From an uncultured Gammaproteobacteria bacterium (GTDB lineage: Bacteria > Patescibacteriota > Microgenomatia > Daviesbacterales > UBA10151), in NCBI GenBank assembly GCA_964392925.1, contig CAYMRP010000003.1, forward strand, positions 50,786 through 114,785: a stretch of 64,000 nt of DNA. Direction: 5' to 3'. A program made the translations under genes and the position numbers. A model generated the notes under the pieces. That model had not been told where the DNA came from. It searched no databases and saw only the letters and a program-made list of their open reading frames with translations. Within the stretch, counting starts at the first letter, position 1; each line of letters begins with the position of its first letter. Positions 28,673 to 56,968 of the stretch are shown piece after piece.

Positions 28673-30814
28673 ATGAAACGTTTTGTTTTGGTTGATGGGA
28701 ATGCTTTGCTTCACCGGGCTTATCACGCAACACCTCCTTTGACTACTTCTAAAGGAGAATTGGTGAATGCAGTTTATGGTTTTACAAATATGGTTTTGAA
28801 AGCTTGGGATGACTTAAAGCCTGACTATATTGCAATTGCCTGGGATAGGCGAGCACCGACGTTTCGACATCAAATGTACACTCAATATAAGGCGACCAGA
28901 GGCCCGATGGATGAATCTTTAGGTAACCAATACACAAGAGTGCATGAAGTGATAAAAGCATTAGGGATTCCAGAGTTTGGAGTTGACGGCTATGAGGCAG
29001 ATGATTTAATTGGGACTTTGGCCCGGCAAGTTAAAGAGCAGAACTTAGAGATAGAAACAATAGTTATAACCGGGGACCGGGATATTATGCAAATTATCGA
29101 TAAAACTACAAAAATATTGATGCCAAAGAAAACTTTATCGGACGTAGGACTTTATGGGGAAGAAGAGTTTGAAGCAAAGTATGAATTTAAACCGGTGCAA
29201 ATGATTGATTTTAAAGGATTGGCTGGAGACGCATCTGATAATATTCCGGGAGTTGCAGGTATTGGGGCCGTGACAGCGACAAAATTAATCAAACAGTTTG
29301 GGTCAGTTGAGAAGATTTATTTACCGGAAAACCTCAGTACCTTACCTGAGCGAACTCAAAAACTTTTGGCTGAGGGAGCTGAGTCGGCGATTTTGTCGAA
29401 AACATTGGCAACAATTGACTTAAATTCACCAATTAAACTGGATTTGGAGGGGTGCTTGGTGTCTGATTATAAAAAAGAAAATGTGGTGGAGCTGTTTAAA
29501 GAATTGGAATTTAAATCATTGGTTAATAAATTAACTGGCTCGGCGAAAGACCCTCTTTTGGGTGATGATCAGCTAAATATTCAAGTGCCTAAACCAGAGC
29601 AAAGTCAGCAAACAACAGATCTTGATGCAGAAGTTGATATGGTATTAAAGAAGATGAGTGAGAAAGGAGTTTTGCTTGATATAAAATTTTTGGAGAAAAT
29701 GGGAACTGAACTTAAAACCAGATTGAAGCAGATAGAAGAAGAAATATTCAAAACTGTCGGACATGAGTTTAATTTAAATTCCCCGAAACAGTTATCTGAG
29801 GTTTTATTTGATGATCTAAATCTTCCAGTAATTAAAAAGACTAAAACCGGCAGGAGTACAGATGAGGAAACTTTAAATGAACTTGCTCCGGCTCATCCGA
29901 TGATCCCGCTGCTTTTAGAATACCGTCAGTTATTTAAACTAGTTTCAACATACATAGATGCGCTGCCTAAATCTGTAGCTGAGGATGGCAGGGTTCATTC
30001 AACTTTTAATGTGGAGGGTGCAGCGACTGGTCGATTATCTTCGGCAAATCCAAATTTACAGAATATTCCAATAAGAGGCCAGATGGGCGGGGAGATTAGA
30101 AAAGCATTTATCGCATCTCCTGGAAAAGTTTTGCTGGGGGCAGATTATTCACAGGTGGAACTCAGGATACTAGCTGATGTATCTGAGGATGAGAATCTTA
30201 TCCAAGCTTTTAGAGACGGACTGGATATTCATACAGCAACAGCGGCAAAAATATTTAATGTTTCGGTTGAGGAAGTTAATAAAGAACAGCGGGTAGTTGG
30301 TAAGACGATGAATTTTGCGACTTTATATGGACAAGGTCCGAGAGCATTATCAAAACAGTTAAAGATAGATACTCAAACTGCAAAAAATTATATTGATGAT
30401 TATTTTTTGCAGTTCTCTAAAGTTAGAAATTGGATGAGTCAAACTTTGGAACTTGGGAAAAAGAATGGTTATGTTGAAACTATTTGGGGGAGACGAAGAT
30501 ATATTCCGGAACTGAATATGCAAAACAAAATGCTGCAATCGTTTGGAGAAAGAGCAGCGATTAACCACCCGATTCAGGGAACGAGTGCAGATATGATTAA
30601 GAAGGCAATGATTGATATTGATAAAACGGGGAACTTAAATTGTTCACTTATTCTGCAGGTGCACGATGAACTTTTATTTGAATGTGACCCAGATAAAATT
30701 AGTGAATGTGCCGCGATGATAAAAGAAAAAATGGAGGGGGCTATTAAATTAAAAGTTCCAGTTAAGGTTGATTTAAAAACAGGATTAAATTGGGGAGAGA
30801 TGAGCGTTTTGTAA
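28673..30814 (+). CDS. polA: DNA polymerase I (5'-3' exonuclease + polymerase; short form without a clear 3'-5' exo domain)
   Basis: N-terminal FEN-like domain (LVDGNALLHRAYHA…GDASDNIPGV). Pol motif A DYSQVELRILA, motif B RVVGKTMNFATLYG, motif C LQVHDELLFE. 713 aa. Confidence 0.9.
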   Translation: MKRFVLVDGNALLHRAYHATPPLTTSKGELVNAVYGFTNMVLKAWDDLKPDYIAIAWDRRAPTFRHQMYTQYKATRGPMDESLGNQYTRVHEVIKALGIPEFGVDGYEADDLIGTLARQVKEQNLEIETIVITGDRDIMQIIDKTTKILMPKKTLSDVGLYGEEEFEAKYEFKPVQMIDFKGLAGDASDNIPGVAGIGAVTATKLIKQFGSVEKIYLPENLSTLPERTQKLLAEGAESAILSKTLATIDLNSPIKLDLEGCLVSDYKKENVVELFKELEFKSLVNKLTGSAKDPLLGDDQLNIQVPKPEQSQQTTDLDAEVDMVLKKMSEKGVLLDIKFLEKMGTELKTRLKQIEEEIFKTVGHEFNLNSPKQLSEVLFDDLNLPVIKKTKTGRSTDEETLNELAPAHPMIPLLLEYRQLFKLVSTYIDALPKSVAEDGRVHSTFNVEGAATGRLSSANPNLQNIPIRGQMGGEIRKAFIASPGKVLLGADYSQVELRILADVSEDENLIQAFRDGLDIHTATAAKIFNVSVEEVNKEQRVVGKTMNFATLYGQGPRALSKQLKIDTQTAKNYIDDYFLQFSKVRNWMSQTLELGKKNGYVETIWGRRRYIPELNMQNKMLQSFGERAAINHPIQGTSADMIKKAMIDIDKTGNLNCSLILQVHDELLFECDPDKISECAAMIKEKMEGAIKLKVPVKVDLKTGLNWGEMSVL

Positions 30815-44233: not shown

Positions 44234-45313
44234 ATGTTTGTTCCTAAATATACAATCACTAATTCAATATTAAAGAATGTCGGGATAATTGATGCTTCGA
44301 GAGAGGTTATTATGAATGCTCCTCTGATACCCGCCTGGGAGGCTAAATTTAAGAAAGAGGCGATTGAGAGGACTGTACATCACGGGACGCATCTTGAGGG
44401 GAATAGATTAACGGATGAAGAGGTTAAAGATGTGCTTGACGGTAAAGAGGTTTTAGCGAGGGAACGGGACATTCAGGAAATTATTAATTACCGCAATGTA
44501 TTGAAATTTATTGATTCAATTGCTGAGCAAATGAAAAATTCAAAGAACTACTTTCTAACAATGGAAGGACTGCTGGAAATACATAGAATAACAACGGATA
44601 GGATTTTACCGCAGGAATCGTGCGGTAAATTTAGAAAAAGCCAGGTAGTTATTAAAAATGCCCAAACTGGTCAAATTTCTTATACTCCGCCGCCTGCTGC
44701 AGAAGTGTCTTATTTAGTTGAGGACTTAATAAATTGGATTAATGATTCAGAAGTTAAAGATATGCATCCGGCAATAAAGGCAGGAATAATTCATTATGAG
44801 GTTTCCAGAATTCATCCTTTTTTAGATGGCAATGGAAGAACAGGGAGGGCGGCTGCAACTTTGATTATGTTTTTGGATGGTTATGATATAAGAAAGTTTT
44901 TTTCTTTGGAGGAGTATTTTGACGAGAATCCGATGGATTATTATTTAACCCTTCAGAAGGTGTCGAATCAGTTAGTGCTGGATACACATGAGAGAGATTT
45001 AACGCCTTGGTTGGAGTATTTTATAAAAGGTGTGGCGATAGAACTTAACAGGGTGAAAGACCGGGTGAGAAGAGTTTCAACAGATGCGAGAATTAAGAAT
45101 CAGCTGGGAGCGCAAATAGAGTTGAATGAGAGACAAATGTTGATAATGGAATATTTACATAGACACGGCAGTATGCAAAATAAAGATTTTAGAAAGATTT
45201 TTCCGGACTTTTCAGACGATACAGTTTTAAGAGAGATGCGGTTTCTTAAGAAAAAAGGGCTTATCAAAAAAGTGGGTGGAACTAAAAAAGCAAAGTATTT
45301 ATTAGATAAATAG
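44234..45313 (+). CDS. Fic-family protein (AMPylation-type FIC domain) with N-terminal inhibitory-helix region and C-terminal wHTH
   Basis: Fic motif HPFLDGNGRTGR. N-terminal TVHHGTHLEGNRLT resembles the class II inhibitory helix (S/T)xxxE(G/N), but Gly replaces Ser/Thr. Confidence 0.8.
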   Translation: MFVPKYTITNSILKNVGIIDASREVIMNAPLIPAWEAKFKKEAIERTVHHGTHLEGNRLTDEEVKDVLDGKEVLARERDIQEIINYRNVLKFIDSIAEQMKNSKNYFLTMEGLLEIHRITTDRILPQESCGKFRKSQVVIKNAQTGQISYTPPPAAEVSYLVEDLINWINDSEVKDMHPAIKAGIIHYEVSRIHPFLDGNGRTGRAAATLIMFLDGYDIRKFFSLEEYFDENPMDYYLTLQKVSNQLVLDTHERDLTPWLEYFIKGVAIELNRVKDRVRRVSTDARIKNQLGAQIELNERQMLIMEYLHRHGSMQNKDFRKIFPDFSDDTVLREMRFLKKKGLIKKVGGTKKAKYLLDK

Positions 45314-46776: not shown

Positions 46777-47973
46777 ATGATTCTATATGAATTTGAAGGA
46801 AAAAAGTTATTAATAGATGCCGGAATTGCAGTTCCCTCCTCGCAACTTATTAGCTCACTAGATGAGGAAGTTTCTTTACAATATCCGCTTGTTTTGAAGG
46901 CGCAAGTTTTATCAGGAAAAAGGGCGGATGCCGGTGGAATATTATTTGCTGAAAATGAAGAAGAGTATAGAAATGGGATTAAGAGGCTCTTGGACTCAGT
47001 TATAAATAAAGAAAAAGTAGAACAGGTTTTAGTTGAGGAGAAGGCAGAAATTGAGAAAGAGTATTATGTTTCAATTTCTTATAACACAGAAACCCGCGGA
47101 GCTGTTTTAACTTTATCTGAATCTGGGGGAACCGGTATCGAGGACAGAGAAGCAAATACGTATAAAGTATCAAGTGTTAAGTATCAAGCCGGCGAGGAAG
47201 CAGTTAAGTTTGATGAACTGGGCAAATTAGAGGGAGTAGATGGAGAGGTTATTAATGATTTAATTAAAATGTTTTTTGATCAGGATTGTTCGCTTTTGGA
47301 AGTTAATCCATTAGTTAAAACCAGATCAGGGGAGTGGATGGCTTTGGACGCAAAAGTAAAATTAGATGACTTTGCAAAACCGAGACACAAGGATGAGTGG
47401 GATTATTCTCCGAGATCAGCTCCAGGTCATACGCCTACCAGAGGCGAAATTGAAGCTAAAAAAATAGATGAAGGTGATTATAGAGGGACTGCTGGTTCTT
47501 CATATTTTGATATTGAGGGTGGTGATATCGCGGTTTTGTCATCCGGAGGGGGTGTTTCTTTGACAGCTTTGGATTCTCTAATTAATTACGGAGGAAAGCC
47601 AGCTAATTTTACTGAATATTCTGGGAATCCACCAAAAGAGAAGGTAGCAAAGCTAACTAAAGTTGTCCTAGATAAGCCTAATATTCATGGCCTTTGGGTT
47701 ATTGGGACTGTTGTTGCGAACTTTACTGATATTTACGAGACGCTATCGGGATTTATTGAAGGATTAAAAGAAACGGAAAAGTTACTGGGCAGGAAATTTG
47801 ATTTTCCAATTGTTATCCGCAGAGGAGGTCCTAGAGTAGAGGAGGCTTATGAGATGTTGAAGAACGTAAAAGAGTTTGATTTTCATTTGCAGGCTGGGGA
47901 GACTTCTATAGCGCAATCGGCGAAGACTATGGCAGAGCTTGCTAAGGAGTATGAATTAAGAATTAAGGGCTAA
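46777..47973 (+). CDS. ATP-grasp subunit, succinyl-CoA synthetase beta / ATP-citrate lyase small-subunit (AclB/CcsA)-like
   Basis: MILYEFEGKKLLIDAGIAVP N-terminus (SucC-like). 398 aa. Followed by an alpha-like subunit and a citrate-synthase-like gene. Confidence 0.7.
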   Translation: MILYEFEGKKLLIDAGIAVPSSQLISSLDEEVSLQYPLVLKAQVLSGKRADAGGILFAENEEEYRNGIKRLLDSVINKEKVEQVLVEEKAEIEKEYYVSISYNTETRGAVLTLSESGGTGIEDREANTYKVSSVKYQAGEEAVKFDELGKLEGVDGEVINDLIKMFFDQDCSLLEVNPLVKTRSGEWMALDAKVKLDDFAKPRHKDEWDYSPRSAPGHTPTRGEIEAKKIDEGDYRGTAGSSYFDIEGGDIAVLSSGGGVSLTALDSLINYGGKPANFTEYSGNPPKEKVAKLTKVVLDKPNIHGLWVIGTVVANFTDIYETLSGFIEGLKETEKLLGRKFDFPIVIRRGGPRVEEAYEMLKNVKEFDFHLQAGETSIAQSAKTMAELAKEYELRIKG

Positions 47974-47978
47974 GTATT

Positions 47979-48881
47979 ATGGGAAATAGATTATTAAAAA
48001 AGGATGCTAAATTAATAGGACAAGGGTTAACGGGGACTGAGGGGGCGAGGGCTTTGCCTAGGATGACTTCTTACGGCACAAAAATCGTGGCCGGAGTGAC
48101 ACCTGGCAAAGGTGGGCAGGAAGTGGAAGGGGTGCCGATATTTAACTCAGTTAAAGAGGCTGTTGAAGCAGTTGGGCCAGTCGATGGTACGGTTCAATTT
48201 GTCCCTCCGTTATTTGTTAAAGGAGCTGTTAAAGAAGCGATTGAGGCCGGATTAAAATTTATTTTAATCAGTGCGGAGAAAGTCCCAACTTCTGATGAGG
48301 CGTATATGTATGAACTAGCTGAGAATAATGGGGCGAGTATTATTGGTCCAAATTCGGTGGGACTTTTAAGTACTCATAATAGAATTAGATTAGGGTTAAT
48401 CGGGGGTTCTGATCCAGAGAAAGTATTTATGCCGGGGGAAATTGCGATTGTCTCTAAATCCGGATCAATGACGGCAGAGATTGGGCTTCATTTAAAAAAT
48501 AATGGTTTAGGAACATCATGGGCTGTTGGGATAGGCGGGGATATTGTGGAAGGAACTGATTTTGCGGATTTTTTACTTGAACTTGAGGATGATGCAAATA
48601 CGAAAGCCTCGGTCATTTTTGGAGAATTAGGGGGAACATATGAAGAGAAAGTGGGGGATTTAGTTAAAGCAGGCAAAATTACAAAACCTGTTGTGGCTTT
48701 GATCGCTGGAGACTTCACTATGAAATTACCTAATGAGGTTCAGTTTGGTCATGCAGGTGCTATTATTGAAGGAGAGAGAGGACTTCCTGACTATAAGCGG
48801 AAATTCTTACGAGAAGCGGGAGTGAAAGTGGCAAACTCGATTGATGAAATTGCGGAGCTTTTGAAGCAGTCTTTAAAATAA
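47979..48881 (+). CDS. CoA-binding subunit, succinyl-CoA synthetase alpha / AclA N-terminal (CcsB)-like, with phospho-His motif
   Basis: CoA-binding Rossmann (GLTGTEG…) and the conserved catalytic-His loop VQFGHAGAIIEG. Confidence 0.75.
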   Translation: MGNRLLKKDAKLIGQGLTGTEGARALPRMTSYGTKIVAGVTPGKGGQEVEGVPIFNSVKEAVEAVGPVDGTVQFVPPLFVKGAVKEAIEAGLKFILISAEKVPTSDEAYMYELAENNGASIIGPNSVGLLSTHNRIRLGLIGGSDPEKVFMPGEIAIVSKSGSMTAEIGLHLKNNGLGTSWAVGIGGDIVEGTDFADFLLELEDDANTKASVIFGELGGTYEEKVGDLVKAGKITKPVVALIAGDFTMKLPNEVQFGHAGAIIEGERGLPDYKRKFLREAGVKVANSIDEIAELLKQSLK

Positions 48882-48883
48882 AA

Positions 48884-49561
48884 ATGGCTATTACAATTAC
48901 ACATGTTGATGATGATGAAACTAAGCCGGCGCTTTTTGAGGAGCAAGATCTTTTGGAGTTAGCCCAGAAGATTTCATTTGCCGAATTGATTTTTGAGATG
49001 TTGACTGAGAGAAAGCCTTCTGAGGCAGAAGCTAAGCTGCTTAATTTAATTTTGAATTTATCAGCCGATCATGGACCTAATGCCCCGTCAGCAGTGGCGA
49101 CAATTGCAGCTACTAAAGAAGGCAAAACAATGGGTGAATCGGTTGGGGAAGGTATGGCGCAGATTGGTGATCGGCATGGCGGAGCAGGAGGGCCTTTGAT
49201 GGAATTGATGTACAGGATCAAGAACCAAGGGACAAGTATTAAGGGAGAAGTTGAAGATGTCTTAAAAGAGGGAAAAAGGATTCCGGGGATGGGTCATCGA
49301 GTCTATAAAGATATTGATCCGAGGGCGCAGTTGATTATGAAAACGGCAGTTGATAATGGAGTGGGTGAGGAATTTGTGAAGCTGGTGAATGAAATAAGAG
49401 ATGAGATTGAGAGACAGTCTGGTAAGAGCTTGCCGGTTAATATAGATGGAGCAATTGCTGCTGTTTTTTGCGGATTTGGCTTAAAGCCGGAATTTGGGAT
49501 TGCAGTATTCATAGTGGCGAGAGCTCCTGGGCTATGTGCTCATTTTATTAATAATTCCTAA
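48884..49561 (+). CDS. Citrate-synthase-like domain protein (citryl-CoA lyase / ACL C-terminal-like), apparently C-terminally short
   Basis: LNLSADHGPNAPSA…GPLMEL…GHRVYKDIDPRA…ARAPGLCAH are hallmark citrate synthase blocks. The protein ends 6 residues after the AH block. Confidence 0.65.
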   Translation: MAITITHVDDDETKPALFEEQDLLELAQKISFAELIFEMLTERKPSEAEAKLLNLILNLSADHGPNAPSAVATIAATKEGKTMGESVGEGMAQIGDRHGGAGGPLMELMYRIKNQGTSIKGEVEDVLKEGKRIPGMGHRVYKDIDPRAQLIMKTAVDNGVGEEFVKLVNEIRDEIERQSGKSLPVNIDGAIAAVFCGFGLKPEFGIAVFIVARAPGLCAHFINNS

Positions 49562-50336: not shown

Positions 50337-50975
50337 ATGGAATCGGTTGGATCCCCGGAATTTAAAACTCAAAACGAAATACTATCAGATGAACTTAAGT
50401 CTTTATTTGAAAGAATGCTTCCTATGGATCTAAGAGAAGCGGAGGCAGTTGATGTGGTAAGTGTTGCCAGCGGCCAGTTTGTACAAGAGTTAGCGGGAGT
50501 GTACTCATTAATCCCAGGAGTAAGAGAATTTAGGGCTGTGGATAGAGGAATTCAAGAAGGACTATTAAAAATCCTTAATGATCAAAAAAGTAGTTTTAAA
50601 GGGTTTAGACTTGAGAATGGAGATGTTAGCAATGGAGATGTATTAGGTCAGTCCCGATATGATCTAGCAATTCTGAGAAATCCTCAAGTAGGCTCACTTA
50701 CAACACCGGGTGAGGTAAATCCTGAGTGGAAGCTGATAATTCAAAATACACTTGATTGTGTGAAGCCTGGAGGGTATTTATTGATCAGTGGGCATTTTCC
50801 TGATGAATTCGAAAGGACTATGGATTTTATAAAGAGGACAGGGGTGGGATGTGAGATTTTAACACAGGAAGATCCAATAACGCCATCTCTCAAATCCGGA
50901 ATACCCATGAAAGAGAGCAGTATTGCATTATTGAGAAAGCCGGTTGCACCTATGGCTATCCCTACTTCACGTTAA
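50337..50975 (+). CDS. Hypothetical protein, possible class I SAM-methyltransferase fold
   Basis: VDVVSVASGQF (motif I-like) and DCVKPGGYLLISG (motif post-II-like). Weak. Confidence 0.3.
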   Translation: MESVGSPEFKTQNEILSDELKSLFERMLPMDLREAEAVDVVSVASGQFVQELAGVYSLIPGVREFRAVDRGIQEGLLKILNDQKSSFKGFRLENGDVSNGDVLGQSRYDLAILRNPQVGSLTTPGEVNPEWKLIIQNTLDCVKPGGYLLISGHFPDEFERTMDFIKRTGVGCEILTQEDPITPSLKSGIPMKESSIALLRKPVAPMAIPTSR

Positions 50976-50994
50976 TAGCTTGTGATTTTACAGC

Positions 50995-52758
50995 ATGTTA
51001 GAAATCCTTTACAATCCAGTCATGACATTTAAAAAACTGGCGGAGTATTTTGAGAAATTAGAAGAGACTTCTTCGCGATTATCCTTAATTGATATATTAT
51101 CGGAACTTTTTTCTGAGGTTTCTCCTGATGAGGTGCCGATGGTTTCTTATTTAATACAAGGAAGAGTAGCCCCTTTTTATGAGCCTGTTGAAATTGGAAT
51201 GGCGGAAAAGAATGTGGCGGCATCGATTGCTAGAGCATATGGTGTTGATAGAGAAGAGGTTTTAACACTATATGGAAAAGTTGGAGATTTAGGAAAGGCT
51301 GCTTTGGAACTGAGCCAGAAGAAAAATCACAAAAGCCAGAGCCTAACAATTAAAGAAGTCTTTGAGACGCTAAAGGAAATTGCAGGATTTTCAGGAGACG
51401 GGACTGTTGAAAAGAAAATCTCAACTTTGGTGGGATTGCTGGAAAAAGCTAGCGGAATAGAAGCCAAGCACTTAGTTAGGATTCCAATCGGAACATCACG
51501 CCTGGGGATTGGTGATCCGACTGTTTTAGATGCCTTTGCTAAGGCTAAATTGGGCGATCGATCAAAGAGGAAGCTCTTAGAGGGGGCATACAACAAAGTG
51601 TCTGATTTAGGACTTATTGGAAAGACTTTGTGGGAGGGCGGGCTTCCAGCAGTTCAAAAGCTGGATGTAGAGTTTGGAAGACCTATTAGAAGTCAGCTTT
51701 GCGAAAGATTGCCTGACCCGAAATCAATTTTGGAAAAATATGGAGGAGATGCTCATGTGCAATATAAATACGACGGTTTTAGGATTCAGATACATAAAAA
51801 GGGAAAACAAGTAAGATTATTTTCGCGTAATTTAGAGGAAACAACGCCAATGTTTCCAGATATTATCGAAGGTGTTTTAAAACAAATTAAAGCTGATTCG
51901 ATAATATTGGATTCAGAAGGATTGGCGTATAACCCGGAGTCAGAGGAATTTTTGCCGTTTCAGGAAACTACGAAAAGAAGAAGAAGACACGGAATTGAGG
52001 ATGCGGCAAAAACTTTACCACTCAAAGCATTTGTTTTTGACATCATGTATATCAACGGAAAATCTTTAGTTGACACCCCGTTATCTGAGAGATTGCAAAT
52101 TATGGCAAAAGCGATCGATGGAGATGAGGTTTTAATTGAACAGCCAGGAATATTTATGAATGATGCTGCTAAGATGGATGCAATGCTGCAGGATGCACTG
52201 ACTAAAGGGTTAGAGGGGTTAATTGTTAAAAGGCCTGATTCTTTGTATGAGGCTGGGGCGCGTAATTTTAACTGGATTAAATTAAAGCGTCATTCCTCGG
52301 GCGAACTTAAAGACACGATTGATTGTGTAATTTTGGGATATATTTTTGGTAGAGGGAAACGGGCTGATTTTGGGGCAGGGGCATTATTAGTTGGGGTTTA
52401 TGATAAGGAAAAAGATGAATTTGTGACTGTTTCTAAAATAGGGACTGGGTTAACAGATGAAGAGTGGAGGGAGATTCATAGACGGGCAGATAAGATTAAG
52501 GTTGATCATAAACCGGCAAGAGTGAATGCAGTCATGGAACCTTCAGTTTGGATTAAGCCGGAAATTGTGATTGAAGTTTTAGCAGATGAGATTACAAAAT
52601 CTCCAACTCATACGGCAGGTAAAACGGATACGGAGCCTGGATATGCTTTACGATTTCCAAGACTGGTTAAGTTTAGAGATGCGGATAAAAGAGCTGAGGA
52701 TAGTACGACTGTTTCAGAGCTGGTAAAAATGTATAGCGCTCAGTATTCGAAAAAGTAG
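50995..52758 (+). CDS. ATP-dependent DNA ligase (Lig1/archaeal-type: DNA-binding + adenylation + OB domains)
   Basis: Motif I KYDGFR (Lys adenylation), motif III, motif IV EGLIVK, motif V, OB domain. N-terminal DBD (…FEKLEETSSRLSLIDILSELF). An alternative ATG at 51022 sits 7 nt after a TACAAT box, suggesting a leaderless start. Confidence 0.85.
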   Translation: MLEILYNPVMTFKKLAEYFEKLEETSSRLSLIDILSELFSEVSPDEVPMVSYLIQGRVAPFYEPVEIGMAEKNVAASIARAYGVDREEVLTLYGKVGDLGKAALELSQKKNHKSQSLTIKEVFETLKEIAGFSGDGTVEKKISTLVGLLEKASGIEAKHLVRIPIGTSRLGIGDPTVLDAFAKAKLGDRSKRKLLEGAYNKVSDLGLIGKTLWEGGLPAVQKLDVEFGRPIRSQLCERLPDPKSILEKYGGDAHVQYKYDGFRIQIHKKGKQVRLFSRNLEETTPMFPDIIEGVLKQIKADSIILDSEGLAYNPESEEFLPFQETTKRRRRHGIEDAAKTLPLKAFVFDIMYINGKSLVDTPLSERLQIMAKAIDGDEVLIEQPGIFMNDAAKMDAMLQDALTKGLEGLIVKRPDSLYEAGARNFNWIKLKRHSSGELKDTIDCVILGYIFGRGKRADFGAGALLVGVYDKEKDEFVTVSKIGTGLTDEEWREIHRRADKIKVDHKPARVNAVMEPSVWIKPEIVIEVLADEITKSPTHTAGKTDTEPGYALRFPRLVKFRDADKRAEDSTTVSELVKMYSAQYSKK

Positions 52759-52793: not shown

Positions 52794-53240
52794 TTAGAGA
52801 TATCTAAATTTCGTGGCTAAACAAGTATTTATCTGTTGAGGTGCTCCTGTAATTCGAATAACTCTTTCGGGTTGTCCACTAAGCCCTGAAAATGGCTCAC
52901 TCATGCCAATCTTGAGCTCTGGTAAATCAAATAATCTTCTTATTGGATCGCCGGAGCCATTCCTGAAGTCACTATCAAGAACAAAAACATCCGTTGCGCC
53001 GGGATTATTTAGTTCTGGTGTTGCCAAAACTCCTAGTACCGGTATTCGTTTAGGACTCACTTCTAAAATAATTCTAGGTTTTCCGACAAGGTCCTTGGGT
53101 TTTGCATTTAGTAGAGCCCAGAGGCCTTTTCTAAGAGAGAGGATCTCTTCTTTATTAGGATTCCTATCAATAGCTGTGGGGTCGATGGCGGAAGCTCCTT
53201 GTGCTAACCTCATGACACCTTCCCTTAAAGTTTCTGGCAT
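52794..53240 (-). CDS. R3H-domain nucleic-acid-binding protein (Jag C-terminal-like)
   Basis: C-terminal MSEPFSGLSGQPERVIRIT parallels the R3H block of Jag (M..ERR.IH…SEGEEPNRRVVI). Confidence 0.4.
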   Translation of the reverse strand: MPETLREGVMRLAQGASAIDPTAIDRNPNKEEILSLRKGLWALLNAKPKDLVGKPRIILEVSPKRIPVLGVLATPELNNPGATDVFVLDSDFRNGSGDPIRRLFDLPELKIGMSEPFSGLSGQPERVIRITGAPQQINTCLATKFRYL

Positions 53241-54124: not shown

Positions 54125-55387
54125 ATGGGGTTTGTGGCGGATTTACATATTCATTCAAGATTTTCTCAAGCTTGTTCGAAATATCTAACGATTCCAAATT
54201 TAGCACTGTGGGCCAAGTATAAAGGAATTGATTTAATGGGAACCGGAGATTGTTTGCATCCTTTATGGCATGCGGAATTGAGGCGGGATTTAAAAGAGAC
54301 GAAAGATGGTTATGAATATAACGGTATTAAATTTTTGCCGACAGTTGAAGTGTCGTGCATTTATAAACAAGGCGGAAGCGTAAGAAGAATTCATACTTTG
54401 ATTTTTTTACCGACTTTAGAATCAGCAGAAATGTTATCTAAAGTCTTAGCCAAAATGGGAAAAAATTTAGTGTCGGATGGAAGGCCGATACTCGGAATGT
54501 CATCTAAGGAGTTGTGTGAAGTAGTGTTTGGGGTAGAGAAAAAAGCCTTGATAATTCCGGCCCATATTTGGACTCCGTGGTTTTCTTTGTTTGGTTCAGA
54601 GTCAGGGTATGATTTTTTGGAAGAATGTTTTGGCGGGTATTCTGATCAAATTTATGCTGTTGAAACTGGTTTATCGAGCGAACCTTTAATGAATTGGCGG
54701 GTTTCACAGCTTGATAATAAGGCAATCGTATCGTTTTCAGATGCACATTCATTACCCCGACTAGGAAGGGAAGTGACGATATTTAAAGGCGAGCCGACTT
54801 TTGAACAACTAAGAAATAATTTGATTAAGAGGCAGATTGTGGAGACGGTTGAATTTTTTCCTGAAGAGGGGAAGTATCATTATTCAGGGCATCGCAAATG
54901 CGGAGTTGTTTATGACACAGCAGAACTTAAAGCGAGAGGAGAGATCTGTCCTGTTTGTGGGAGGAAATTGACATTGGGGGTATTGAATAGGACTGAGGAG
55001 TTAGCTGATCGGGGGACGCAGGAAATAAGAGTGATAAATCAAGGAGGAGTAATAAGTTCTGGGGTATTTCCCGATAGAGCGGGGTTTAGGATGCTGGTGC
55101 AGCTTGAGGAAATTATTGCAGCAAGTATGGGGTTTTCGGTTGCTTCGCAGAAAGTTCAAAAAGAATATTTAAGACTTGTAACAACACTGGCTCCAGAATT
55201 ATTAATACTCACTAAACTTTCAATCGAGGATATTGAAAAAAATGCTGGTGCTAGAATTGCTGAGGGAGTCAAGAGAGTTCGGGAAGGCATGGTTGCAATT
55301 AGGCCAGGGTTTGATAATACTTATGGCAAAGTTAGGATTTGGAGTGATGAAGAGAAAGCTCAGAATAAACAAATTGAATTGTTTTAA
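54125..55387 (+). CDS. PHP-domain protein with Zn-finger, endonuclease Q-like
   Basis: N-terminal ADLHIHSRFSQA PHP motif. CPVCGRKL zinc-finger-like element. About 420 aa, as for EndoQ. Not confirmed. Confidence 0.4.
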   Translation: MGFVADLHIHSRFSQACSKYLTIPNLALWAKYKGIDLMGTGDCLHPLWHAELRRDLKETKDGYEYNGIKFLPTVEVSCIYKQGGSVRRIHTLIFLPTLESAEMLSKVLAKMGKNLVSDGRPILGMSSKELCEVVFGVEKKALIIPAHIWTPWFSLFGSESGYDFLEECFGGYSDQIYAVETGLSSEPLMNWRVSQLDNKAIVSFSDAHSLPRLGREVTIFKGEPTFEQLRNNLIKRQIVETVEFFPEEGKYHYSGHRKCGVVYDTAELKARGEICPVCGRKLTLGVLNRTEELADRGTQEIRVINQGGVISSGVFPDRAGFRMLVQLEEIIAASMGFSVASQKVQKEYLRLVTTLAPELLILTKLSIEDIEKNAGARIAEGVKRVREGMVAIRPGFDNTYGKVRIWSDEEKAQNKQIELF

Positions 55388-56380: not shown

Positions 56381-56968
56381 ATGTATTTAATAGTCGGTTT
56401 AGGTAATACAGGTGAGAAGTTTAAAAACACCCGACATAATTTGGGGTTTGAAGTTGTTGATGAACTCAGGAAGAAATTGGATTTACCTAATTTTACAAAA
56501 GAAGATAAGTTCAAAGCTGAAGTCACAAAAGGGGAGGATCTCATTTTGGCTAAGCCAGTAACTTTTATGAACTTATCAGGACTGGCTGTGGCACCTCTTG
56601 CTCAATATTTTAAGATTCCTGTTGAAAATATCATTATTGTTCATGATGAACTAGATTTACCGGTTGGTCATATTAAAGTTAGAATTGGCGGCTCAGATGC
56701 AGGACATCATGGAGTTGAATCAGTGATTCAAATGCTTGGAGATGAGAAATTTATTAGAGTTAGATTAGGAATTAGTATTTGGCAAGCAATATCAGGCGAG
56801 CATAAACAAGCGGCTTTTAAAGCTGAAAAGTTTGTAACAGAAGGATTTGAAACGAGTGAAAAATCAAAGGTTAAAGCTATGATTAAAAGAGGAGTGAAGG
56901 CGGTGGAGGCGATTTTGGAGTTAGGTTTAGATAAAGCCCAAAATCAGTATAATGACAAAGGGGTTTAG
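56381..56968 (+). CDS. pth: Peptidyl-tRNA hydrolase
   Basis: MYLIVGLGNTGEKFKNTRHNLGF bacterial Pth signature. Catalytic His in TRHN. Confidence 0.9.
   Translation: MYLIVGLGNTGEKFKNTRHNLGFEVVDELRKKLDLPNFTKEDKFKAEVTKGEDLILAKPVTFMNLSGLAVAPLAQYFKIPVENIIIVHDELDLPVGHIKVRIGGSDAGHHGVESVIQMLGDEKFIRVRLGISIWQAISGEHKQAAFKAEKFVTEGFETSEKSKVKAMIKRGVKAVEAILELGLDKAQNQYNDKGV

Follow-up and report, generated by a model that had tools for sequence, protein, structure and literature searches.

DNA ligases are regarded as dividing replication at a basic level, those of bacteria being NAD-dependent and those of archaea and eukaryotes ATP-dependent, and this split underlies LigA as an antibacterial target. The contig CAYMRP010000003.1 (assembly GCA_964392925.1), of which positions 50,786 to 114,785 were analysed as one stretch of 64,000 nt (the window), carries an ATP-dependent DNA ligase gene of archaeal type, and raises the question of whether this enzyme is an oddity of one genome, an accessory to LigA, or the ligase with which its bacterial host replicates. 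The gene at 51022-52758 is predicted to encode an ATP-dependent DNA ligase of the Lig1/archaeal type, catalytically intact, in Candidatus Daviesbacteria, members of the Microgenomates in the Candidate Phyla Radiation (CPR). The reading that we favour combines an intact ligase, a core gene, a leaderless promoter and a likely replacement of LigA; as a whole it is given a probability of about 0.7.

An open reading frame (ORF) of 587 aa, as its longest reading, is present at 50995-52758 on the plus strand. The corrected coding sequence (CDS) and the domains that it encodes, with Pfam residue ranges numbered on the 587-aa form, are:

51022-52758, plus strand, ligase CDS as corrected, 578 aa, with the translation verified and the start matched to homologues.
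51028-51540, plus strand, N-terminal DNA-binding domain (DBD), PF04675 DNA_ligase_A_N, aa 12-182, 136.7 bits.
51694-52287, plus strand, adenylation/nucleotidyltransferase (NTase) domain, PF01068 DNA_ligase_A_M, holding motifs I-V, aa 234-431, 179.1 bits.
52375-52680, plus strand, OB-fold domain, PF04679 DNA_ligase_A_C, holding motif VI (RFPR), aa 461-562, 72.7 bits.

All three domains of this DBD-NTase-OB architecture scored over the Pfam gathering cutoffs (24.6, 26.2 and 27.5 bits for A_N, A_M and A_C, respectively), and the NCBIfam superfamily model TIGR00574 'dnl1' gave 417.8 bits (cutoff, 217.8). The nucleotidyltransferase motifs I, III, IIIa, IV, V and VI were found intact as K249-YDGFR, LDSEG, FVFDIMY, EGLIVK, WIKLK and LRFPR, respectively, with the lysine nucleophile at Lys249 in the 578-aa numbering (codon 51766-51768). 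A sequence-only reading of this DNA had described a Lig1-architecture ATP-dependent ligase ORF with KYDGFR, and the Pfam, TIGR00574 and motif checks bear this out. From family membership, the predicted activity is ATP-driven nick sealing via Lys249: the lysine would be self-adenylated with ATP, the DBD, NTase and OB domains would encircle the nicked duplex, and 3'-OH/5'-phosphate nicks would be sealed. By itself the ligase gene is an ordinary member of a known enzyme family and is annotated already.

Among solved structures, the best match to the ligase was that of S. solfataricus (SsoLig, 431-433 bits), followed by the Thermococcales ligases (300-324 bits), human LIG1 and A. fulgidus Lig (~262 bits), LIG3/LIG4 (~120 bits) and the ligase domain of Mycobacterium tuberculosis (Mtb) LigD (64 bits); identity to crenarchaeal and DPANN ligases was 41-47% over the full length. 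The alignment with Saccharolobus solfataricus Lig (PDB 2HIV/7RPO) was full-length and collinear at 431 bits and ~41-45% identity, with the architecture and six motifs in common, and the Daviesbacteria ligase carries the SsoLig/Lig1-type insertions that the Thermococcales ligases lack. It differs in that the N-terminal extension of 20 residues found in SsoLig, which holds the PIP box of that enzyme, is missing, the alignment beginning at Sso residue 21. In addition, the PCNA-binding QKSFF in the DBD of PfuLig aligns to NHKSQ of the Daviesbacteria ligase. As judged from these alignments, the known PCNA-docking elements are absent, as expected in a cell without PCNA; whereas archaeal replicative ligases work in archaeal hosts, the Daviesbacteria host is bacterial with a bacterial Pol I.

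A ligase of the LigD type, serving non-homologous end joining (NHEJ), was ruled out: the LigD/NHEJ models fell short of their cutoffs (TIGR02779, 155.7 vs 227.75 bits; TIGR02776, 134.7 vs 373 bits), the Mtb LigD structure scored only the 64 bits given above, no Pol or PE domain was detected in the ligase by Pfam, and no Ku was found among the neighbour genes. The sequence-only reading had held that a grouping with LigD-associated ligases would speak against it, and by models and structures no such grouping applies. Bacterial Lig B has the DBD-NT-OB layout and a likeness to the replicative ligases of archaea, from which it is believed to have been transferred; its gene cluster comprises an Lhr helicase, a binuclear metallophosphoesterase (MPE) and an exonuclease (Williamson and Leiros 2020, PMC7470946). 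The earlier statement that the enzyme is much larger than a minimal bacterial LigB was thus wrong, since Lig B shares its architecture (PMC7470946). The Daviesbacteria ligase is like the Mycobacterium tuberculosis LigB type in being a bacterial ATP-dependent DBD-NT-OB ligase, but it scored under the cutoff of all bacterial LigB equivalog models (PRK03180, 271 vs 641; PRK09247, 165.6 vs 543; TIGR04120, 147.5 vs 400), and an Lhr helicase/MPE/exonuclease cluster was not found around it, either among its window neighbours or in the 79 related loci described below. It is also far more conserved and widespread in its own lineage than Lig B, and may not be an accessory of LigA.

The protein database held >7,500 homologues of the ligase, the best 120 at 71-95% identity, and the named homologues among the matches listed were Candidatus Daviesbacteria or Patescibacteria. 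By scanning one genome per GTDB species, 79 ligase loci were obtained from Daviesbacteria, Levybacteria, Woykebacteria and unclassified Microgenomates/Patescibacteria; locus L013 among them lies on a closed Daviesbacteria chromosome of 820 kb (CP066688.1). Across these loci, the median identity of the ligase was 68%, compared with 47% for peptidyl-tRNA hydrolase (Pth) and 46% for an Endonuclease Q (EndoQ) homologue encoded nearby. Neighbour joining grouped the Microgenomates ligases into one clade on a long stem, placed in a poorly resolved bush at 35-47% identity together with DPANN (Micrarchaeia, archaeal locus L063) and other Patescibacteria, with Sulfolobus farther off; within the tree set they were only 41-47% identical to any archaeal sequence. 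Labels were available for four of the 20 nearest 50%-identity representatives (Micrarchaeia, Patescibacteria and a 'Clostridia' metagenome-assembled genome), and the star-like tree does not resolve the donor lineage. Taken together, the loci, their synteny and the separate clade mark the ligase gene as an ancient, vertically inherited and highly conserved core gene of the Microgenomates, and not as a recent transfer or a contaminant. The oddity in a bacterial context that the sequence-only reading had implied is not upheld by the homologues, loci, synteny and clade.

Inteins were found in some Daviesbacteria orthologues. Four ligases of 918-928 aa (P0010, P0047, P0107 and P0119; loci L060, L064, L065 and L067) carry a class-1 intein of 341-350 aa (Cys1...His-Asn/Cys+1), inserted exactly after KYDGFR of motif I, that is, after residue 254 of the 578-aa form. 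PF14890 Intein_splicing matched in all four and PF14528 LAGLIDADG_3 also in P0010. Homing inteins typically reside in essential replication and repair enzymes.

As a separate observation on the source records, many GTDB records titled 'uncultured Gammaproteobacteria bacterium' (binchicken/SRP co-assemblies) and single ones titled Lysobacterales, Limnocylindrales or Saccharimonadales (L001-L007, L009, L014 and others) have Microgenomates-type ligases at 60-88% identity in Microgenomates synteny; all these titles look mislabelled.

Whether the ligase stands beside LigA or in its place was approached through the family counts in Supplementary Data 1 of Meheust et al. 2019 (PMC6744442), which are aggregate over 2,321 CPR and 1,198 non-CPR bacterial genomes; ligases go unmentioned in the main text of that paper. 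The three-domain ATP-dependent ligase family is already catalogued there in 675 of the 2,321 CPR genomes, in 69 non-CPR bacteria and in 61 archaeal genomes, and LigA (NAD+) in 1,318 CPR and 944 non-CPR genomes. For comparison, the CPR and non-CPR counts are 2,019 and 1,075 for DnaB, 2,034 and 1,030 for RecA, 1,976 and 983 for DnaG, and 1,985 and 1,057 for GyrB (PMC6744442). The CPR counts of LigA and the ATP-dependent ligase add up to 1,993, which is about how often universal genes such as GyrB, DnaG and DnaB are detected in these draft genomes, and the CPR:non-CPR ratio of LigA (1.40) is the lowest of the replication proteins compared (~1.9 for DnaB, RecA, DnaG and GyrB). These counts suggest that LigA and the ATP-dependent ligase are distributed in an either/or manner in the CPR.

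We consider it probable that this enzyme is the principal, and probably the only, DNA ligase of these bacteria, with LigA displaced. The principal role is favoured because of the 68% median identity, the lineage-wide presence, the inteins at motif I, the lack of a Lig B context and the CPR counts. Following the window's bacterial Pol I/5'-3' exonuclease, the ligase would then seal Okazaki fragments, and it would also close nicks where EndoQ has initiated the repair of deaminated bases. The two roles are compatible, since a sole ligase would serve EndoQ repair too.

The start of the coding sequence was evaluated by alignment. About 110 of the best 120 homologues begin MTF(K/Q/S)..., a start that matches Met10 in the longer ORF and the ATG at 51022, and the SsoLig and PfuLig alignments start at residue 1-2 of the 578-aa form. 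The codons upstream of this position are:

50995-51021, plus strand, nine in-frame codons (MLEILYNPV), probably untranslated.

This nine-codon extension was otherwise seen only in the 95%-identical P0002; extensions elsewhere are unrelated, and the nearest upstream in-frame stop in other loci is 6-288 nt away. Because the homologues and the archaeal ligases begin at 51022 and the extension is unshared, the predicted start is ATG 51022 and not 50995, giving the CDS of 578 aa. The in-frame ATG 51022, proposed as the start from the sequence alone, is thereby supported by both sets of alignments. The ATG at 50995 falls inside a promoter spacer, between these two hexamers:

50987-50992, plus strand, -35 hexamer TTTACA, with a 17-nt spacer to the -10 hexamer.
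51010-51015, plus strand, -10 hexamer TACAAT, followed by the 6-nt discriminator CCAGTC and the ATG at 51022.

This near-consensus promoter, TTTACA-N17-TACAAT, is contained in the 46 intergenic nt that separate the upstream stop (50973-50975) from the ATG, and the A of ATG 51022 lies 7 nt beyond TACAAT, with 6 nt between; the sequence-only reading had placed the hexamer correctly. The usual distance from a -10 hexamer to the transcription start is 6-7 nt. From this sigma70-type promoter, transcription would start at or next to A51022 of the AUG. A Shine-Dalgarno (SD) check found no GGAG/GAGG in the 20 nt upstream of ATG 51022. Taken alone, the promoter match is not above chance, as 13 promoter-like sites were counted in a 4.7-kb AT-rich region against 11.2 expected from shuffles. 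Orthologous starts were therefore compared at the 68 loci with sufficient upstream sequence. A strict TAnAAT was located 5-9 nt before the start in 35 of them, against ~1.8 expected from the positional background (binomial P ~1e-36, relatedness ignored), and 19 of these 35 also have a -35-like hexamer (TTTACA or TTGNCA) at 16-18 nt spacing. The start codon is ATG in 65 of the 68 orthologues, and an SD-like motif precedes only six. The Daviesbacteria loci share the promoter consensus TTTACA-N17-TACAATCC-N4-ATG, despite differing farther-upstream sequence and a differing upstream gene. Because the -10 box is conserved at the ATG in about half of the loci and an SD motif is so rare, the prediction that the ligase mRNA is leaderless in Daviesbacteria is well supported, in agreement with the sequence-only reading.

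The same geometry recurs well beyond the ligase. For 1,308 ORFs (100 aa or longer) from the window and the loci, the spacing between any TAnAAT and the first ATG was surveyed, and distances of 6, 7, 8 and 9 nt were found for 108, 62, 37 and 31 ORFs, respectively (238 of 1,308 in sum), over a background of ~7 per position. At the 152 non-ligase sites with 6-7 nt spacing, T occupies position -3 in 67% and G position -2 in 59%, giving the extended -10 motif TGnTAnAAT; because this signature is independent, these sites are taken as real promoters. Of 70 window ORFs, nine carry the box at a distance of 6-8 nt (P ~2e-6):

22025, 27224, 34481, 35988, 46189 and 51022, plus strand, leaderless-type starts with TAnAAT 6-8 nt upstream.
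27155, 5218 and 3539, minus strand, leaderless-type starts of the same kind.

SD motifs were present at only a minority of the window genes, and the leaderless-type geometry occurs at ~13-18% of ORFs in Daviesbacteria and Levybacteria DNA. The leaderless layout of the ligase is thus one case of a lineage-wide habit that extends to many ordinary bacterial genes, and the link that the sequence-only reading drew between a leaderless start and an 'archaeal flavour' does not hold. Leaderless transcripts make up a sizeable gene share in Actinobacteria and Deinococcus-Thermus, including M. tuberculosis. The likeness lies in a -10 box ending ~6-7 nt before the AUG, the lack of an SD and the sizeable share of genes; the difference is that the Microgenomates geometry is known from sequence alone. 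No description of leaderless initiation in the CPR was found in the literature searched. The signal matters for gene calling, as CPR starts are easily mis-set, the ATG at 50995 being an example, and it bears on translation initiation by the reduced CPR ribosome.

The genes around the ligase keep a conserved same-strand order, running from a Fic/helix-turn-helix (HTH) gene through the ligase and the EndoQ gene to, further on, Pth. In the window these conserved neighbours are:

44234-45313, plus strand, Fic-domain/HTH protein (Pfam Fic, 79 bits), a same-strand upstream neighbour of the ligase in 66 of 79 loci.
54125-55387, plus strand, EndoQ homologue of 420 aa, matching PfuEndoQ (5ZB8/7K30) at E = 8e-50 with residues 5-413 aligned.
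56381-56968, plus strand, Pth (Pfam Pept_tRNA_hydro, 191 bits), present in 52 of 79 loci.

The Fic gene lies 5-12 nt from the ligase start in ~10 loci and abuts the ligase in the Levybacteria-type arrangement. In 54 of 79 loci (L005, L038, L041 and L056 among them) the EndoQ gene lies downstream on the ligase strand, and in ~12 of the 54 it begins 3-40 nt after the ligase stop, an arrangement that suggests a ligase-EndoQ operon in CPR bacteria. The 420-aa protein had no Pfam match (E up to 0.01); described from the sequence alone as 'EndoQ-like', it proves by its alignment to PfuEndoQ to be a real Endonuclease Q homologue. In the window, the ligase neighbours are Fic, an ATP-citrate-lyase (ACL)-like module, a sortase, TatD, EndoQ, an inositol monophosphatase and Pth. 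The ACL-like module, the sortase and a 212-aa ORF occupy the Fic-to-ligase interval, and TatD and a small opposite-strand ORF the ligase-to-EndoQ interval; these inserts were found in just 0-9 of the 79 loci, the TatD-family nuclease adjoining the ligase in the window and in 9 loci. The window also encodes FtsH, a signal peptidase and a Pol I with a 5'-3' exonuclease domain, and is plainly bacterial.

Several features of the window were recorded in their own right. Three of them are:

46777-49561, plus strand, three-gene ACL-like module (ATP-grasp + citrate-binding; CoA-binding/ligase; citrate-synthase C-terminal domain).
28673-30814, plus strand, Pol I homologue of 713 aa with 5'-3' exonuclease and polymerase domains and, by Pfam, no 3'-5' exonuclease domain.
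50337-50975, plus strand (212 aa), and 52794-53240, minus strand (148 aa), ORFs flanking the ligase, with no Pfam or NCBIfam match and no tblastn match in the 79 loci.

The ACL-like module occurs in only 4-5 of the 79 loci (L008, L010, L019, L022 and L077) and looks like an insert in the Fic-to-ligase interval. The two flanking ORFs may be lineage-specific genes, or not genes. GC skew was positive in all 2-kb bins of the window 1-64000 (+0.07 to +0.38), and nearly all genes lie on the plus strand; an unusual strand G/C disparity has been reported for other Microgenomates (PMC7143001).

A number of points weigh against the favoured reading. On the side of LigA, the CPR ligase counts are aggregate and not per genome, and DnaE is also low (1,355 of 2,321 CPR genomes), so that the splitting of families can mimic absence. 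Neither a motif regular expression nor tblastn with an approximate E. coli LigA probe gave a LigA hit above noise in the window or the 79 related loci (1.26 Mb), but this LigA-negative DNA covers ligase neighbourhoods only and is uninformative on whole genomes. The tight pairing with EndoQ fits a dedicated repair ligase equally well. Such an accessory enzyme, functionally a Lig B, would leave replication to LigA, be co-transcribed with EndoQ and seal the nicks of EndoQ-initiated excision repair. We regard this as a possible but distinctly less likely account: the EndoQ gene directly downstream, often within 3-40 nt, and the adjacent TatD-family nuclease speak for it, as does the finding that bacterial ATP-dependent ligases (AD-ligases) are in all cases found beside LigA (2020 review, PMC7470946), whereas the conservation and near-universal presence of the gene would be unusual for an accessory ligase, the Lhr/MPE context is missing, every LigB equivalog score is under its cutoff, and the aggregate CPR counts fit complementarity with LigA over co-occurrence. 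A preprint of 2020 put forward high-light Prochlorococcus as the first departure from this pairing of AD-ligases with LigA (10.1101/2020.05.11.089284). The AD-Lig P of high-light Prochlorococcus marinus (Hjerde et al. 2020 preprint) is similar in that an ATP-dependent ligase apparently replaces LigA in a bacterium, but it is of a different subtype, with a DBD that Pfam does not recognise and a variant OB domain. Replacement was shown there by truncated ligA genes and positional substitution, whereas in the CPR it is deduced from aggregate counts only, and in the CPR it would span a class-level lineage. Apart from the Lig B review, this preprint and the Meheust supplement, nothing on point was found in the literature searched on ATP-dependent ligases and LigA in the CPR, Patescibacteria or Microgenomates.

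On the side of the promoter, a terminator looked for between the ligase and the gene upstream was not found, and a read-through, leadered transcript may also be made. In Levybacteria-type loci, the TATAAT sits in conserved C-terminal codons of Fic (KYIM), with the Fic stop 1 nt before the ligase ATG; six such loci (L032, L033, L038, L055, L057 and L073) have a Fic end ...KGAKYIMA* overlapping TATAAT. Conservation of this box is confounded because it overlaps Fic coding codons, and the Levybacteria-type ligase may be driven by translational coupling or by an intragenic promoter. For the window gene, it is improbable that translation begins at ATG 50995 (587 aa), or that the ligase is translated solely from a leadered polycistronic mRNA with TACAAT as a chance AT-rich hexamer. 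ATG 50995 does open the longest ORF, promoter-like matches near the ligase are no commoner than in shuffled sequence, and the missing terminator would suit a leadered message; yet the 9-aa extension is missing in ~110 of 120 homologues and in the archaeal ligases, neither ATG has an SD motif, and the promoter motif keeps a fixed distance to the ATG though upstream sequence and gene vary between loci. Far less credible still is a recent horizontal transfer or an archaeal binning or assembly contaminant. The closest characterised relatives are archaeal and the taxon labels of some source records are inconsistent, but the ligase has the same GC (0.40) as its flanks, bacterial genes surround it (sortase, Pth and TatD, with Pol I in the window), the neighbourhood is repeated in 79 species genomes including the closed L013 chromosome, and the Microgenomates sequences form their own clade at 41-47% identity to archaeal ones. 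Synteny and clade structure effectively refute this account.

Three points stand out: that LigA may have been replaced across the lineage, that the ligase is paired with EndoQ, and that leaderless promoters pervade the Microgenomates. We hold it slightly better than an even chance that the class-level Microgenomates (Daviesbacteria, Levybacteria, Woykebacteria and relatives; ~30% of CPR genomes) have lost LigA and replicate with an anciently acquired archaeal-type ligase, working with a bacterial Pol I and replisome without PCNA-docking motifs, coupled to EndoQ and, in Daviesbacteria, leaderless. If true, no other exception to bacterial replication with an NAD-dependent ligase would come near it in size, such an exception having so far been claimed only for high-light Prochlorococcus, and it would provide a natural system in which to study the coupling of an archaeal-type ligase with a bacterial beta-clamp replisome. 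If the Microgenomates rely on the ATP-dependent ligase alone, a large share of bacterial diversity would break the ligase rule.

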